Below are positions 24,945 to 40,854 of a stretch of DNA of 47,865 nucleotides, one piece after another. The first letter of the stretch is position 1. Each line of letters starts with the position of its first letter. Below the pieces are notes generated by a model. That model had not been told where the DNA came from and did no database searches. It saw only the letters and a list, made by a program, of their open reading frames with translations. Made by a program: the position numbers and the translations under genes. Source of the DNA: Shigella phage Henu10. The stretch lies in sequence record OQ791282. One strand, 5' to 3'.

Positions 24945-25044
24945 ATTTTATCTATACTAAATTTATACAAAAATACAAAAAAAAGTAGACTTTCTTATGT
25001 TTTGCTTTTAAAAATTCGTTTTCACACACCTTTAAAAAAACACA

Positions 25045-25075
25045 AAACCCATTGAAAATCAATGGGTTTATTTTT
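25045..25075. terminator. Bidirectional terminator hairpin
   Basis: Perfect 11-bp stem AAACCCATTGA / TCAATGGGTTT with A-run upstream and T-run downstream. Confidence 0.55.
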
Positions 25076-25078
25076 GAG

Positions 25079-25181
25079 GTTGCGAACTATCACAAAGATA
25101 GTAAATTTTTGAAAGCAATTCACAACGCTATTGGAGTTGCTTGTCTTTCAAGTTCCGTTGCGAACCATCACAAAGATAGTA
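25079..25181. repeat. Two 25-bp direct repeats GTTGCGAAC(T/C)ATCACAAAGATAGTA
   Basis: Copies at 25079..25103 and 25157..25181; each carries TATCTTTG on the minus strand. Confidence 0.5.
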
Positions 25182-25183
25182 TT

Positions 25184-32925: not shown

Positions 32926-33222
32926 TTAGAAAGGCAAATCGTCGTCGTCCTGAAAATCATCGGCATTTGCTTCCTGTATTTTAGGTGTTGATTTTCTTAG
33001 ATTTCCGATGAATACAGATTTTATATTATCCTTATGATATTCTTCTTTTAATGGAGAGGATATAGAACCGTCATTTTCGTATTTGTCAGGTTCATCATTG
33101 ATATATACATTGACATTGATATATCGTGTTCCGTTTTCGTGTTTAAAAGTTTTTAGTTTACCTGATTTAAGATTTTCTAATAGTTTGTCGTAGTTAATAC
33201 TACCGTAAAATGATTGTACCAT
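32926..33222 (-). CDS. Small protein with SSB-type acidic C-terminal tail (DDDDLPF)
   Basis: C-terminus ...DDFQDDDDLPF resembles the SSB C-terminal interaction tip (E. coli SSB ends DDDIPF). Confidence 0.4.
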   Translation of the reverse strand: MVQSFYGSINYDKLLENLKSGKLKTFKHENGTRYINVNVYINDEPDKYENDGSISSPLKEEYHKDNIKSVFIGNLRKSTPKIQEANADDFQDDDDLPF

Positions 33223-35343: not shown

Positions 35344-35553
35344 TTAGAGGGCTTTTTTTCTTCTTTTTCTCTTTGGTTTTGGATATATTTTATACCTTTC
35401 TTTGGAATCAAACATAGCGTGCAACCTCTTCTTTCTACTTTCTTTGCTTTCCGCTACCCCTAACATCCAGCGATGAATTTTCTCTGTCTCTTTAGGGTCG
35501 CACACTAATGTTAATTGTGTTCTAAATATTGGTATAAGTTGCTCTGCTGTCAT
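35344..35553 (-). CDS. Hypothetical protein with basic C-terminus
   Basis: 69 aa; start overlaps stop of Cro-like ORF (ATGA). Confidence 0.4.
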   Translation of the reverse strand: MTAEQLIPIFRTQLTLVCDPKETEKIHRWMLGVAESKESRKKRLHAMFDSKERYKIYPKPKRKRRKKAL

Positions 35554-35729
35554 ATCTCAATCTCGTCTATTTCTTTTTTTAAACATTCTTTTGCTCTTTT
35601 TCTAATGTTCTTTGCAAGTTCACTCTCTGTGAAATATTTTAGAGCGTTAGTAATAGTCTGTTGAGTTACCCCAAACTCTTCTCTTAAGATTTTGTGATAT
35701 TTACTTGGTAGGCTTATTCTTTTTTTCAT
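35550..35729 (-). CDS. Cro-like HTH regulator (59 aa, below ORF-track cutoff)
   Basis: Translation MKKRISLPSKYHKILREEFGVTQQTITNALKYFTESELAKNIRKRAKECLKKEIDEIEI; first gene of the leftward early operon, divergent from the CI-like gene. Confidence 0.5.
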   Translation of the reverse strand: MKKRISLPSKYHKILREEFGVTQQTITNALKYFTESELAKNIRKRAKECLKKEIDEIEI

Positions 35730-35746: not shown

Positions 35747-35809
35747 TTGATAGTGCAAATATAATACAAAATTGTATTATATAAAAATAATAATGATACA
35801 ATTCTGTAT
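35747..35809. promoter_or_regulatory. Early promoter/operator region
   Basis: Minus-strand TATATTTG (35763..35756) inside the 19-mer TTGATAGTGCAAATATAAT, also present at 40704..40722; inverted repeats ATACAA-N2-TTGTAT (35764..35777) and ATACA-N4-TGTAT (35796..35809). Confidence 0.5.
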
Positions 35810-35848
35810 TAAACAATTTAATTAACTGAAAATCAATATTAAAAATTT

Positions 35849-36415
35849 ATGAGAAGCTTTAGATTAAGCATTATTTCCTTAGTAATTTCTCTAATCGCTA
35901 TTTCTTTGGTGTATTTTAGACCTAGCCCTATTGAAATAGATATGTTTAATTCTATCATTACCATTCTGGCTCTTCTCATAACCTTACTAATAGGATATCA
36001 GATTTTCCAAATAATTGATTTTAAGCAAGAAAAAACCAACTTATTAAATGAAGTTGATAAAAAATTTAAGGCTACCCAAGAAGAGTTTGATAAGTCTATG
36101 CTAGAGATGAAAGGGGCAAATACAGTAATGTACAGCCATTTTTTTCAGTATTATATGGAGGGACAAAATGATTATGGTGTACTTTCCACATTTTCTGATA
36201 TTGTAATAAATAACTCACATAATGAAGATTTGTGCAAAGTAATGCTAAGAGCTGTTTTAGAATATACAGAAACGGGAATAACATTTAAACACGAATATGA
36301 ACAGAAAGAAATAATGAAATTATTTGAAGCAAAATCTATAGATTTTTTAAAAGCAATAGACAAAGAAAAATTTGAACTATTAAGAGAACGACTAGATATG
36401 TCATCAATTCGTTAG
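35849..36415 (+). CDS. Membrane protein (superinfection-exclusion candidate)
   Basis: Two N-terminal transmembrane helices; sits between the cro-like and cI-like genes. Confidence 0.4.
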   Translation: MRSFRLSIISLVISLIAISLVYFRPSPIEIDMFNSIITILALLITLLIGYQIFQIIDFKQEKTNLLNEVDKKFKATQEEFDKSMLEMKGANTVMYSHFFQYYMEGQNDYGVLSTFSDIVINNSHNEDLCKVMLRAVLEYTETGITFKHEYEQKEIMKLFEAKSIDFLKAIDKEKFELLRERLDMSSIR

Positions 36416-36684
36416 ATGATTTTGACTGTTCAGTGTTATTTACTAGCGAAGTGTTATTTTCTTTGGTATGAATGGGTGTATTTTTATCAAGAAGTAAAGA
36501 ACGAAAGATTGTTTCTTTAACAATATTTGAAGCTCTTTCTTGGTGTATTTTGGCTACAATTTTTTTTGATAGCTCATTTGATAAGAGAGCTTTATCATAT
36601 TTCTCTTCGTTGATTGCTTTGTAAATAATTTCTAAATCGTTCATATTAGCAATGTTTAGGATGTTAAAATAATAATACAAATAT

Positions 36685-37443
36685 ATGAAAAAGATAATAC
36701 AGAAAAGTATTAAAAATAATTTAAAGGATAGATTAAATACTGTTTATAACTATCTGAAAAAAACGACAGAATTTACAACGCAAACACTTTTAGCTGAGAA
36801 GATAGGATATACACGCTCTAATTTTTCAGCTGCATTAAATGGAGACGAGAGGTATCTAACAGAAGGTGTTGTTGATAAAATAGTGGAGGCTTTTCCGCAG
36901 TTAAATAGAGAGTGGTTCATAACGGGCAAAGGCGAAATGCTAAAGTCTTCAGAAGAAACTCCGATAAAAGGGGAGGGGGTAAAAGTAATTTTAGACGCAG
37001 AGATAAAAAGAACCCCATCGGAAGGCACACCTTATTATGATGTTGATTTTGCCGGAGGTTGGAACTCTGATGAGATTTTTTCACTTGGGAATCCATCATT
37101 TTATATCCAAAGTCCAGATTTTAGAAGGGCAGAGTTTGCTACTAATCTCGTGGGAAACTCTATATCAAAGATAATTCCCAGTGGAGCCATTGTAGGATTT
37201 AGACAAGTAGAGGATTGGAAAACTTATTTCCCAACAAATGAGCTGTATGGTATCATTACTAAAAACGAAATGAGAACCGTAAAAAGGGTAAAAAGAAAGA
37301 AAGGAGACTCAAATACACTTGTGTTGATTCCTGACCCATTAGAGGTTCATTCAGGATATGAGCCTGAGGAGTTGCCTATTGATTTTGTTTCAAAGATGTT
37401 TCAAGTGGTTGCTTGGGCAATGTTTGAGAGAGTAGCAATGTAA
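36685..37443 (+). CDS. CI-like repressor (HTH plus S24 LexA-like peptidase domain)
   Basis: N-terminal HTH (TQTLLAEKIGYTRSNFSAALNG); C-terminal GNSISKIIPSGAIVGF with downstream Lys-rich segment resembles the S24 Ser-Lys dyad region. Confidence 0.65.
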   Translation: MKKIIQKSIKNNLKDRLNTVYNYLKKTTEFTTQTLLAEKIGYTRSNFSAALNGDERYLTEGVVDKIVEAFPQLNREWFITGKGEMLKSSEETPIKGEGVKVILDAEIKRTPSEGTPYYDVDFAGGWNSDEIFSLGNPSFYIQSPDFRRAEFATNLVGNSISKIIPSGAIVGFRQVEDWKTYFPTNELYGIITKNEMRTVKRVKRKKGDSNTLVLIPDPLEVHSGYEPEELPIDFVSKMFQVVAWAMFERVAM

Positions 37444-38228: not shown

Positions 38229-39545
38229 ATGGCAAAAAATGGTCAAAAAGTTTCCCTCTCTCTCCGCAAAAAGGAGTTAAGCCGTTGTAAATCAACGGTT
38301 TTGCTTTATAAAACAGGTCTTAAAGCACAAAAGTGCACAAATTCCATTTCCGCTACCCCTAATGTCCAACACTTTAATTTGGACGAAATGGAAAATTATT
38401 GGACTAATCCCAAAGTGAAACATTACCCCTTAGAAACAGGTAAGGATTGGTATGTTTGGTTTCGATTTAACGGAGGTAATCCCATTAGAGTAAAGCAAGG
38501 GCTTAATCAGATTCCAGAATTTGAGGAAAGGCTGCAAGAGGCTTATGCAATGGCAGATGTCATAAGAGAAAGGCTAGAGAGTGGTTGGGTTCCTCAAAGT
38601 GCTAAAGTGAGGGTAAAAAGGATAAATCTTATAGATGCCGTTATATTTGGCTTTGAGGAAAAAAAGAAAACTCTTTCAAAAAACAGCATCGATAATTTTA
38701 GAAGCTCTGTCAATTTCTTTATTGAAGCGGTCAAGGAGTTGCAATATCACAGAATGCAGGTGTCTAGTTTTGAAAGGATACAAGCTAAAGAGGTTCTGGA
38801 ACATCTAAAAAATGAGAAAGGCTGGTCTAACAAGACTTATAATAAACATCTTGGTTTTTTAAGGTCTGTTTTTCACGAAATACTTGACGCTGACTACATA
38901 AAAAGTAATCCATTTAGAGACATTAGAAATCTAAAGGTTCTAAAAAAAGAAGCAAATGTACCTCCAACAAATGAGGAGATGAAAGCTATATCTAACGCTT
39001 TGCAGGATTACTGTTTTGGGTTCTATGTCTTTTGTTCCACTATCTATTATTGCGGTATCCGTCCTGCGGAGTTGGTGCAAATGAAAGTATCAATGCTAGA
39101 TTTGGATAACGAGCTAATCAATTTACCTGCTGAAATAACAAAAACAGATGCTGATAGGGTAGTACCCATAAGCGAAAACTTGAAAAGTCTATTTTCAAAA
39201 TTTAACCTTTCTAATCCTCATAATTATTTGTTTGGTACTTGCGTGCCGAATGGAGGAAGGCACGGTATTAAAAATAGATATTTTGAGCCTAATGAGTTCA
39301 AAGTAAAGGAAGACACAGCTAATAAGCTATGGCGTAGGCTGATAAAAGACGGCTTAGGCATTGACAAAAATATGTACTCCTTGAAGCACAAAGGAGCAGA
39401 CGATAAAATATTAGCAGGAATGCCTATTGAAACCATACAGGCTATATTTGGACACTCTACTCAAAAAATGACCGAGCGATATGCTAGGATAATGAAATTG
39501 CAAAGATTTGAAGAGGCTAAAAAAATAAAGTTGCCTTCTTTTTAG
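38229..39545 (+). CDS. int: Tyrosine integrase (true start may be ATG 38388)
   Basis: C-terminal catalytic region ...GHSTQKMTERYARI (H-x-x-x-T-x-x-Y); a terminator-like hairpin and a 16-bp direct repeat lie within the first 160 nt of the track ORF. Confidence 0.8.
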   Translation: MAKNGQKVSLSLRKKELSRCKSTVLLYKTGLKAQKCTNSISATPNVQHFNLDEMENYWTNPKVKHYPLETGKDWYVWFRFNGGNPIRVKQGLNQIPEFEERLQEAYAMADVIRERLESGWVPQSAKVRVKRINLIDAVIFGFEEKKKTLSKNSIDNFRSSVNFFIEAVKELQYHRMQVSSFERIQAKEVLEHLKNEKGWSNKTYNKHLGFLRSVFHEILDADYIKSNPFRDIRNLKVLKKEANVPPTNEEMKAISNALQDYCFGFYVFCSTIYYCGIRPAELVQMKVSMLDLDNELINLPAEITKTDADRVVPISENLKSLFSKFNLSNPHNYLFGTCVPNGGRHGIKNRYFEPNEFKVKEDTANKLWRRLIKDGLGIDKNMYSLKHKGADDKILAGMPIETIQAIFGHSTQKMTERYARIMKLQRFEEAKKIKLPSF

Positions 39546-39550
39546 ATAAA

Positions 39551-39581
39551 AACCGCGAGAATTTACAAAGTTCTCGCGGTT
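39551..39581. terminator. Bidirectional terminator between convergent int and Panacea-pair operons
   Basis: Perfect 11-bp stem AACCGCGAGAA / TTCTCGCGGTT with loop TTTACAAAG. Confidence 0.6.
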
Positions 39582-39586
39582 CTAGT

Positions 39587-40189
39587 TTATAATTTTTGTG
39601 AATCTTGTTTAGAGTATAACTCTTTTATCTCTTCTGTAACGATAGGTTCATAAAATTTTATAAAATCATCTATAACACTTTCGTCACATGAATTTTTATT
39701 ATAACCTACATAAATATTGTCTCTGATATTTCCTTTTTGTTTCATATCATATTCTTTTTTTATACAATTTCTTTTCAAAAAAGTATAAAAAACGCTCATT
39801 CTTCTGTTTAAATCCTCTTTTTGAGAGTGTTTGACATAGTTGTCATCTAATGCATAAAAACAAAAAGAATAACCCTTATGTTCTTCTATGCAAAGGTTAA
39901 AACATTCTCTGAATAGTCGTAAAGTTACCATAGGATTTATACAATCCCTACCTTTATTTCTTTTAAATTTTTTTATCCCTTTAGATTTGGAAAATTTAGT
40001 AAAATAAAAAGACAAAACAATTATTTTGTATTTTTCAAAACGCTCTAAAAGAATTATCCATCTATGCTTTTTGTCTTCATCACAAATAATGAGGCTATAT
40101 TCCTCTTCAACATAAAATACTCCGTGCTTGTCTTTATTGGAACTTTTAATCCTTTTTTTAGAAACTTTAAAATAACTCTTCCCCAACAT
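39587..40189 (-). CDS. Hypothetical protein, putative toxin partner of the Panacea-domain protein
   Basis: 200 aa, Cys- and Lys-rich; overlaps the upstream gene by 23 nt; no recognisable domain. Confidence 0.35.
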   Translation of the reverse strand: MLGKSYFKVSKKRIKSSNKDKHGVFYVEEEYSLIICDEDKKHRWIILLERFEKYKIIVLSFYFTKFSKSKGIKKFKRNKGRDCINPMVTLRLFRECFNLCIEEHKGYSFCFYALDDNYVKHSQKEDLNRRMSVFYTFLKRNCIKKEYDMKQKGNIRDNIYVGYNKNSCDESVIDDFIKFYEPIVTEEIKELYSKQDSQKL

Positions 40190-40679
40190 TACTGTTAAAA
40201 GTTGCTATCCCACATACATTGTGATTGACAACAGGTATCCTTCCGTTACCGTCCAATGAAAAATCAGAAATACTTTGTCCATCTATTTTTATTGTATTGG
40301 TAGATATTTGCTCAGGAGAAATTTCTCCTCTAGCATTTCTCCAAAGAGATTCACTATGAGTCAAATCTACTAACTCTAATCCTGTATATCCTCCATAAAT
40401 CTTCCAAATTTCATTCAGATGAGAAACGATTTCTTTATCACATATATCTTTTTCAATATATCTCTCATTTATTAAATCCCCTCTTCTTATAAACCTATAT
40501 TTATCCCAAACATTGCGAACAACAGGACCTAATACCCAAGCCTGTATTTCGTCTTTAAATAGCAAATTTCTATACTTAACAAAATACCAAACTTGAGAGT
40601 AAAATAGAAGTTTCTGTAACTTCAGTGGTGTTACTCCTTTTCTAATAAAGAAAAACGATATATCTACTGCGGAATACAC
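40167..40679 (-). CDS. Panacea-domain (DUF4065 / GepA-like) protein, PanA-like antitoxin candidate
   Basis: N-terminus MYSAVDISFFFIRKGVTPLKLQKLLFYSQVWYF...AWVLGPVVRNVWDKY matches the Panacea hallmark (T.LKLQKLLYYAQ ... AW..GPV); own TATATTTG promoter at 40720..40713. Confidence 0.55.
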   Translation of the reverse strand: MYSAVDISFFFIRKGVTPLKLQKLLFYSQVWYFVKYRNLLFKDEIQAWVLGPVVRNVWDKYRFIRRGDLINERYIEKDICDKEIVSHLNEIWKIYGGYTGLELVDLTHSESLWRNARGEISPEQISTNTIKIDGQSISDFSLDGNGRIPVVNHNVCGIATFNSNVGEELF

Positions 40680-40854
40680 GATACAATATTTTATATATTA
40701 AATTTGATAGTGCAAATATAATATTTTAAAATTATTTTTATTTTTCTATTATTAAATTATGTAGTCAAATGTGCAAAAGCAGTTTAAATCTAAATGTCTA
40801 AATGATAAAAACCACCGTGAGGGTGGTTTTTGTTTTTACTTGCATTTGACGATA

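Follow-up and report, generated by a model that had tools for sequence, protein, structure and literature searches.

The window, that is, the whole 47,865-nucleotide stretch analysed here (sequence record OQ791282, Shigella phage Henu10), is 100% identical between positions 33000 and 42000 to the Riemerella phages vB_RanS_PT03, PT15 and PT33. CRP12 is 100% identical over 93% of this region, where the CRP12 record ends, and about 15 further RAP44-like temperate phages of Riemerella anatipestifer align to it as mosaics with 96–99% identity. On sequence similarity, the window represents a temperate R. anatipestifer siphophage of the RAP44 group (Weeksellaceae, Bacteroidota).

The region is organised around two divergent transcription units. 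A long minus-strand early operon opens with a 59-aa gene (35550–35729, read from 35729 to 35550), whose product has a helix-turn-helix-like motif and belongs to phrog_16858, of unknown function; ERF and YqaJ-like recombination genes lie further along. The plus-strand unit contains a 188-aa predicted membrane-protein ORF (35849–36415), a CI-like repressor gene (36685–37443), two small ORFs, and a tyrosine integrase gene (38229–39545; Pfam PF00589, 4e-16). The minus-strand genes for PanA (40679 to 40167) and a 200-aa partner (40189 to 39587) come next; after them, likewise on the minus strand, are the endolysin (41349 to 40855) and tail genes. The 19-bp core of attP published in PMC12169736, TCCCTCTCTCTCCGCAAAA, was located at 38253–38271, inside the integrase ORF (nucleotides 25–43). 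Integration would therefore split the integrase gene and place the PanA cassette ∼1.3 kb from one prophage end. An Rfam search of the window gave zero matches. A sigma-70 promoter scan returned 31 sites against 24.6 in shuffled sequence, a model that is not informative for a Bacteroidota host.

The repressor contains a helical N-terminal DNA-binding domain and an S24-like C-terminal domain. It matches PHROG 4 'transcriptional repressor' (8.6e-17); the Pfam S24 match is weak and below cut-off, and its relatives carry HTH_3, Phage_CI_repr and Peptidase_S24 domains. Across 37 homologues, Gly-124, Ser-159 and Lys-200 are invariant and Ala-123 is present in at least 90%; Ser-159 and Lys-200 align with LexA Ser-119 and Lys-156 in a weak BLASTP alignment. 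The AlphaFold model (pLDDT 79) features helices at residues 2–80, a disordered segment at 91–111, and a β domain at 115–245, and its best PDB matches are LexA (1jhf, 2e-6), 186 CI (2fjr) and lambda CI (3bdn), with E values from 2e-6 to 1e-5. On these matches, the protein is a repressor of the CI/LexA kind with the Ser-Lys dyad and the Ala-Gly cleavage site in place, cleavage itself being predicted. Since it belongs to this family, we infer repression by occlusion and RecA-dependent induction. The repressors of Riemerella prophages (P0120–P0132; loci L092, L093 and L144–L147) are modular, with at least four unrelated N-terminal domains joined at GEMLKSSEETPIKGEG to one nearly identical C-terminal domain; in the PJN03 repressor, a different S24 domain follows the window-type N-terminal domain.

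The 19-mer TTGATAGTGCAAATATAAT is found exactly at 35747–35765 and 40704–40722 and nowhere else in the window, even at three mismatches. Two copies compare with 0.06 expected by chance, and none of 100 shuffles gave two. The original prediction had described this identical core, carrying a minus-strand −7 box at each site; the exact match search and the shuffles confirm it, and the identity in fact extends to 20 bp (TTGATAGTGCAAATATAAT plus A; 35747–35766 and 40704–40723). Allowing one 1-nt gap lengthens the repeat to 25 of 26 columns (TTAAA-TTGATAGTGCAAATATAATA), and the local alignment of the two copies scores 46, against 25.5 ± 4.0 and a maximum of 43 in 500 shuffles.

Read on the minus strand, both copies give ATTATATTTGCACTATCAA, which contains TATATTTG, a perfect match to the Bacteroidota sigma-A −7 box TAnnTTTG, with 12 further identical bases around the box. 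The boxes, at 35756–35763 (read from 35763 to 35756) and 40713–40720 (read from 40720 to 40713), are intergenic and lie 26 nt and 33 nt before the start codons of the early operon and the PanA pair, respectively, which agrees with the earlier reading of both sites as promoter cores of these operons (P_early and P_panA). In the start-site map of Flavobacterium psychrophilum, the TAnnTTTG box occupies −12 to −5 (PMC9723704). Transcription is accordingly predicted to start near 35751 and 40708, with leaders of 22 nt to the ATG at 35729 and 29 nt to the GTG at 40679. Counted from these predicted start sites, the 20-bp repeat would span approximately −15 to +5 of both promoters.

Near-identical promoter modules are present in three further pairs in the window. 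The promoter and leader at 6299 (plus strand) and 25549 (minus strand) are identical over 34 nt, ahead of two ORFs with similar N-termini; those at 8176 (plus) and 24007 (minus) have 27 nt in common, upstream of two antirepressor-containing modules; and a tandem pair, TATCTTTGTGATrGTTCGCAAC, is located at 25100 and 25178 (both minus) in the 24945–25183 gap. In this genome, promoters are reused as a general habit.

P_early is accompanied by a −33-like element and two inverted repeats. The element TTTTT (35783–35787), assigned from the −33 TTTG/−7 TAnnTTTG architecture, is positioned 19 nt upstream of the −7 box; at this spacing the window has TTTT, and three prophages (L144, L145 and L147) have a true TTTG. 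The sequence ATACANNNNTGTAT occurs exactly only at 35764–35777 and 35796–35809 in the window. The first occurrence is the core, ATACA-N4-TGTAT, of O1 (35759–35782), a perfect palindrome with 11-bp arms that takes up the spacer from the −33 element to the −7 box and extends over the first five nucleotides of the box. The second, ATACAATTCTGTAT, is the core of O2 (35793–35811), which is centred 32 bp from O1 on the upstream side of the −33 element, so that the element lies between the two repeats; the O2 region is 89% complementary to O1 over 19 nt.

The P_early core is kept with at most one mismatch in all RAP44-like phages, heteroimmune ones included, and the repeats next to it change with the repressor. 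The window, CRP19 and PJA1 have window-type N- and C-terminal repressor domains and ATACA-N4-TGTAT twice, the half-sites of O1 and O2 being constant and the spacers variable. GDF21 and prophage L147 have an unrelated, second type of N-terminal domain on the window-type C-terminal domain, and contain ACTAAG-N4-CTTAGT and ACTAAG-N4-TTAAGT at these places. A third type in prophage L144, again with the window-type C-terminal domain, is accompanied by TAGAGC-N4-GTTCTA and TAGAAC-N4-TTTCTA. In prophage L145, a fourth N-terminal domain (a weak Pfam Phage_CI_repr match), likewise on the window-type C-terminal domain, is accompanied by CACA-N4-TGTG and CACA-N4-AGTG. PJN03 represents the converse swap: the window-type N-terminal domain is attached to a different C-terminal domain (GDSM motif), and ATACA-N4-TGTAT is retained.

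Four types of N-terminal DNA-binding domain thus pair with four palindromes at the same two positions, while the −7 core stays constant. In every case compared, operator 1 starts immediately after ...GCAAATATA, which is complementary to the −7 box; operator 2 follows 30–32 bp beyond, with a −33-like TTTT or TTTG between them, 19 nt upstream of the box. Exact operators of each type are found only at the O1 and O2 positions of the cognate phage, and in GDF21 and PJN03 the exchanged modules join at the −7 box itself. The two ATACA(A)-N-(T)TGTAT repeats that had been noted as operator-like are therefore real features of this promoter and, because they change together with the repressor N-terminal domain in four immunity types, their identification as operators of the CI/LexA-like repressor is well supported by sequence comparison.

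The first gene of the early operon does not follow this pattern. GDF21 and L144 encode the 59-aa protein with 100% identity, although they differ from the window in their operators, and PJN03, with operators as in the window, has a different first gene in its place. A 59-aa gene that stays identical across operator types is not swapped along with the immunity module and cannot have its operators in common with CI; a role as a Cro protein acting on these sites was therefore rejected. When relatives of this protein were sought, the sole hit was a high-GC contig (L143), which encodes a longer protein with only the FGVTQQTI motif in common and is irrelevant. The earlier designation of the region as a cI/cro intergenic region is hence only loosely right: the repressor is CI-like, but the 59-aa gene is not Cro-like and the immediate rightward neighbour is the 188-aa ORF, with the repressor gene 836 nt further on.

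The 188-aa ORF occupies a variable slot between the operators and the repressor gene, which holds different genes in PJA1, GDF21, L144 and L145. By length, the occupant has 188 aa in the window, 127 aa in L091 (9154–9534), 441 aa in L093 (6520–7842), 438 aa in L144 (1960–3276) and 82 aa in L145 (3059–3307); the leader of the slot gene (..CTGAAAATCA..) is conserved. The slot (35849–36415 and its equivalents) is a second site for cargo, presumably expressed with the repressor in lysogens. A canonical rightward −7 box for the repressor operon was sought in 35780–35848 and 36416–36684, and none was found.

A possible third operator, ATACAGAAAAGTAT, with one mismatch to the operator core, is located at 36697–36710 within codons 5–9 of the repressor gene. 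It overlies the −33 region belonging to a leftward TATATTTG box (36685 to 36678), and in GDF21 the corresponding place carries a two-mismatch site of that phage's operator type (L093 8079–8094). These matches hint that the site may serve autoregulation or looping. The leftward box overlaps the repressor start codon and lies 33 nt upstream of the ATG at 36644, the start of a minus-strand ORF that runs into the end of the 188-aa ORF (window 36336–36710).

The second copy of the core heads the PanA cassette. PanA (40167–40679, minus strand, GTG start) is a Panacea/SocA-domain antitoxin (Pfam PF13274, 3e-17; phrog_1281, 6e-35), and all of its 119 homologues contain PF13274. The 200-aa partner encoded at 39587–40189 is of no known family and had no match in Pfam, PHROGs, PADLOC or NCBIfam. 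An ORF of 200–210 aa overlapping the end of PanA is kept in loci with 99%, 81%, 63% and 58% PanA identity. From this arrangement, the partner is a candidate for a new family of PanT toxins.

The cassette is bounded by two hairpins. A strong 14-pair hairpin at 39551–39581, between the convergent integrase gene and the PanA/partner operon, forms the cassette terminator, and a bidirectional terminator-like hairpin at 40804–40834, after the endolysin gene, insulates the cassette from the late operon. Sequence common to phages without the cassette starts at 40797. The 20-mer was considered as the cassette boundary and discarded, cassette-specific sequence going on for ∼75 bp upstream of it, to 40796. 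The PanA cassette is present only in PT03, PT15, PT33 and CRP12 (4 of ∼20 related phages); elsewhere the same slot holds other cargo, some of which bears a similar core, TTTACAGTGCAAATATAAA. A chromosomal prophage of R. anatipestifer has the PanA cassette beside a different integrase and lysin, and the 170 nt upstream of PanA are the same there but for one base in the terminator loop. By this comparative evidence, PanA and its partner constitute a self-contained moron cassette (promoter, PanA, partner, terminator) in a hypervariable integrase–endolysin slot.

Two side features of the slot were observed. A plus-strand TAAATTTG box at 40699–40706 stands back-to-back with the PanA −7 box and could start a ∼120-nt transcript (40712–40840) running to the bidirectional terminator; a small RNA from this box was not retained as a candidate, there being no Rfam match and no structure besides the terminator hairpin (z = −1.5). 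The alternative islands of CRP19, PJA1, GDF21, PJO17 and GRNRAP2 (L090 12270–12460 and its equivalents in L091, L093, L094 and L096) contain a second divergent regulatory region. There, a TATATTTGCACTGTAAA promoter points towards a small gene with the annotation 'lambda repressor-like', and the region may act as a switch of its own.

P_panA lacks the regulatory surroundings of P_early. A −33 element was sought 19–21 nt upstream of its −7 box and none was present; the DNA upstream of the box is unrelated and AT-rich, with no cognate palindrome at the position equivalent to the operators. One operator-like sequence, ATACAATATTTTAT, lies in the PanA leader at 40681–40694 (+14 to +27), 10 nt downstream of the shared core. 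It raises the alternative that the CI-like repressor co-represses the PanA operon, either as a roadblock at this site or by looping to O1/O2. The site has a single mismatch to the operator core, its GATACAAT half is the same as the O2 half, and GATACAA is a perfect half-site. However, the other half-site is poor, its extended form matching at only 4 of 7 positions, and the site lies beyond the predicted start, not on P_panA itself. Matches with at most one mismatch are no commoner than chance in the window (5 against 2.2 expected; 12 of 100 shuffles reach 5), and the leader sequence was judged to be one of chance. Nor was an exact cognate operator found in the accessory islands of nine related phage loci and one chromosomal prophage. 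The attP site being inside the integrase gene, the cassette in a lysogen would be ∼37 kb from O1/O2, and the same cassette and promoter occur in the prophage with a different integrase and lysin. Co-repression by the CI-like repressor is therefore unlikely. The suggestion in the original prediction that the Panacea pair is co-regulated with the early promoter is not borne out: P_panA has no operator, the leader match is within chance, the cassette is autonomous and the core is widespread.

The core recurs in PanA loci and far beyond them. PanA relatives were taken from the protein database, an IMG/VR peptide-pattern search having found none. The Riemerella columbina orthologue (81% identity) keeps the core as TATATTTGCAtTATCAt (fuller form ATTATATTTGCAtTATCAt), and a metagenomic orthologue (63% identity) keeps it as TATATTTGCtCTATCAA (fuller form aTATATTTGCtCTATCAA), the flanks being unalignable in both. 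Orthologues of 58% identity or less have only a generic TAnnTTTG, with unrelated sequence after the −7 box. Outside these loci, the exact 19-mer was found 37 times (8 IMG/VR contigs and 29 species genomes), mostly in Bacteroidota and mostly 10–40 nt upstream of a start codon. The sequence TATATTTGCAYTATCAAATT is present at no fewer than 120 metagenomic loci in at least 68 distinct contexts. In at least 41 of these an ORF begins within 90 nt, transketolase and cold-shock genes among them; the enrichment of the core over chance in these public collections is a rough estimate. In the window, TATATTTGCA(G/C)T is common to five promoters. A set of 43 phage promoters has the consensus TAtaTTTGCAgTA, and a position-weight model built from them, a set too small for ranking, placed the core at the 44th percentile. 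Eight human-gut metagenome contigs (L149, L155, L158, L165, L185, L220, L224 and L247) contain a 108-aa gene (MRTREFLHEVMSLAWQFVKRNGY...) with the same promoter core, an identical 68-nt leader and differing upstream flanks; this gene probably travels on a mobile element of gut Bacteroidales.

This distribution bears on a second alternative, in which some other factor, either an early or late protein of the phage or a regulator of the host, times both operons together, independently of CI, with the shared block (−14 to ∼+12) as its cis element. P_early keeps TTGATA(G/A)TGCAAATATA beside four immunity modules and first genes of two kinds (59 aa and 77 aa), the P_early of L145 and L147 matches P_panA to ∼+12 (TATATTTGCAyTATmAAATTTA), and the block is kept in PanA orthologues down to 63% identity, all of which would fit such an element. 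Set against this, the block contains no dyad or direct repeat and does not covary with the first early gene, and in PJN03 positions +1 to +5 are replaced while the operators and −7 box are kept. Moreover, the same 20-mer precedes housekeeping genes of many unrelated Bacteroidota, which fits recognition by RNA polymerase rather than by a phage-specific factor. A timing element of this sort is improbable. In a narrower version, which we regard as quite improbable, the −14 to +12 block would be a dedicated cis element of Riemerella mobile elements (a target for a factor of host or phage, or a 5′ tag on the RNA) that couples prophage cargo to the early lytic programme. If it were true, the PanA pair would be boosted exactly on prophage induction or on infection by a related phage.

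A third possibility is that the core at P_panA is an autoregulatory operator of the PanA–partner complex and that its identity with P_early is incidental. Type II antitoxins commonly autoregulate, and the core is kept in PanA orthologues despite diverged flanking non-coding DNA. In a domain search, though, window PanA contained the Panacea domain only (residues 21–113) and no recognisable DNA-binding domain; N-terminal HTH domains are found in only some PanA proteins (PMC8832971). No palindrome is kept among the orthologous promoters either, and the sequence following the −7 box is unrelated in the orthologues of 58% identity or less. Autoregulation through the core is very unlikely.

We consider it probable, rather, that the two cores are consensus-like promoters for the host RNA polymerase, one gated by CI (P_early) and the other autonomous (P_panA). 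Host sigma-A RNA polymerase would read both cores, comprising the −7 box and the initiation region, on the minus strand. P_early would drive the 59-aa gene and the recombination/replication operon; in the lysogen, the CI/LexA-like repressor bound to O1/O2 would exclude polymerase from it, and RecA-stimulated self-cleavage (Ala-123–Gly-124, Ser-159, Lys-200) would relieve the repression. P_panA would provide the same core, free of operator and −33 element, at the head of a self-contained cassette. Because of this autonomy and the missing operator, the PanA pair is most likely transcribed independently of CI, the lysogen included, as expected of a moron or an addiction/defence module, and we infer that its expression is constitutive.

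Under this two-promoter account, the identity of the cores would reflect a consensus-like Bacteroidota promoter, possibly spread by recombination among Riemerella mobile elements, and not a site for a shared regulator. About seven identical positions go beyond the consensus-like TATATTTGCAnTA, which is unlikely for two unrelated promoters in one genome, at roughly 1e-3 after allowing for the number of pairs. These extra identities probably owe something to common ancestry, through recombination among Riemerella elements, or to selection for a particular strong initiation region. A recent duplication of P_early onto the cassette in the window phage is unlikely, as the same core is found in the cassette of another prophage and a near-identical one in R. 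columbina and the 63% orthologue. PanA orthologues and P_early variants each keep the core, so both lineages carried it before they met in the window genome; an older exchange of the core among Riemerella elements possibly took place.

The kind of system is well known: a lambda-like CI/operator switch built on a Bacteroidota-type promoter, together with an autonomous moron promoter. The likeness to lambda-type switches lies in the divergent lysogenic and early lytic units with dyad operators overlapping the early promoter, in a repressor that combines an N-terminal helical DNA-binding domain with an S24-type self-cleaving C-terminal domain as in the LexA and 186 CI family (cleavage being predicted here), and in immunity types that arise by exchange of the DNA-binding domain with its operators. 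The differences are that the promoter is of the −33/−7 type; that two intergenic operators are present rather than three, the possible third being 900 bp off inside the repressor gene; that a variable gene separates the operators from the repressor gene; that the first leftward gene stays behind when the immunity module is exchanged, leaving no Cro that shares the operators; and that no canonical rightward promoter was found in the window. With respect to Bacteroidota sigma-A promoters, the TAnnTTTG of both sites is perfect and stands at the customary distance from the start codon, and P_early has a −33-like element at 19 nt, whereas P_panA has none and the two promoters share 12 extra identical bases around the box.

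Like the morons of HK97 and lambda-like phages, the PanA cassette has its own −7 promoter and terminator, is flanked by the conserved integrase and endolysin genes, and gives way to other cargo in the relatives without it; it differs in belonging to a Bacteroidota phage and in having a promoter core identical to the phage's own early core, with expression in the lysogen being predicted. It resembles type II PanA–PanT pairs (PMC8832971) in its Panacea/SocA antitoxin overlapping an adjacent partner ORF and in its prophage context. The window PanA, however, has no HTH domain and its partner no recognisable toxin domain, which makes toxicity and neutralisation putative.

In the RAP44-phage literature searched for promoter and repressor terms, promoters are unmentioned, the repressor appears only as a domain annotation, and the switch is undescribed. 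The present analysis provides a first sequence-level map of the RAP44-like immunity switch, with its early promoter, two operators, modular CI/LexA-like repressor and at least four immunity specificities. RAP44-like phages are considered for therapy against this duck pathogen, and their integrase serves as a genetic tool. The map predicts which phages would be homoimmune and that the PanA cassette would be expressed from the prophage; the identity of the promoters at P_early and P_panA does not indicate shared regulation. For Bacteroidota genetics, it offers a core promoter that is compact and probably strong, along with four candidate pairs of repressor and operator.
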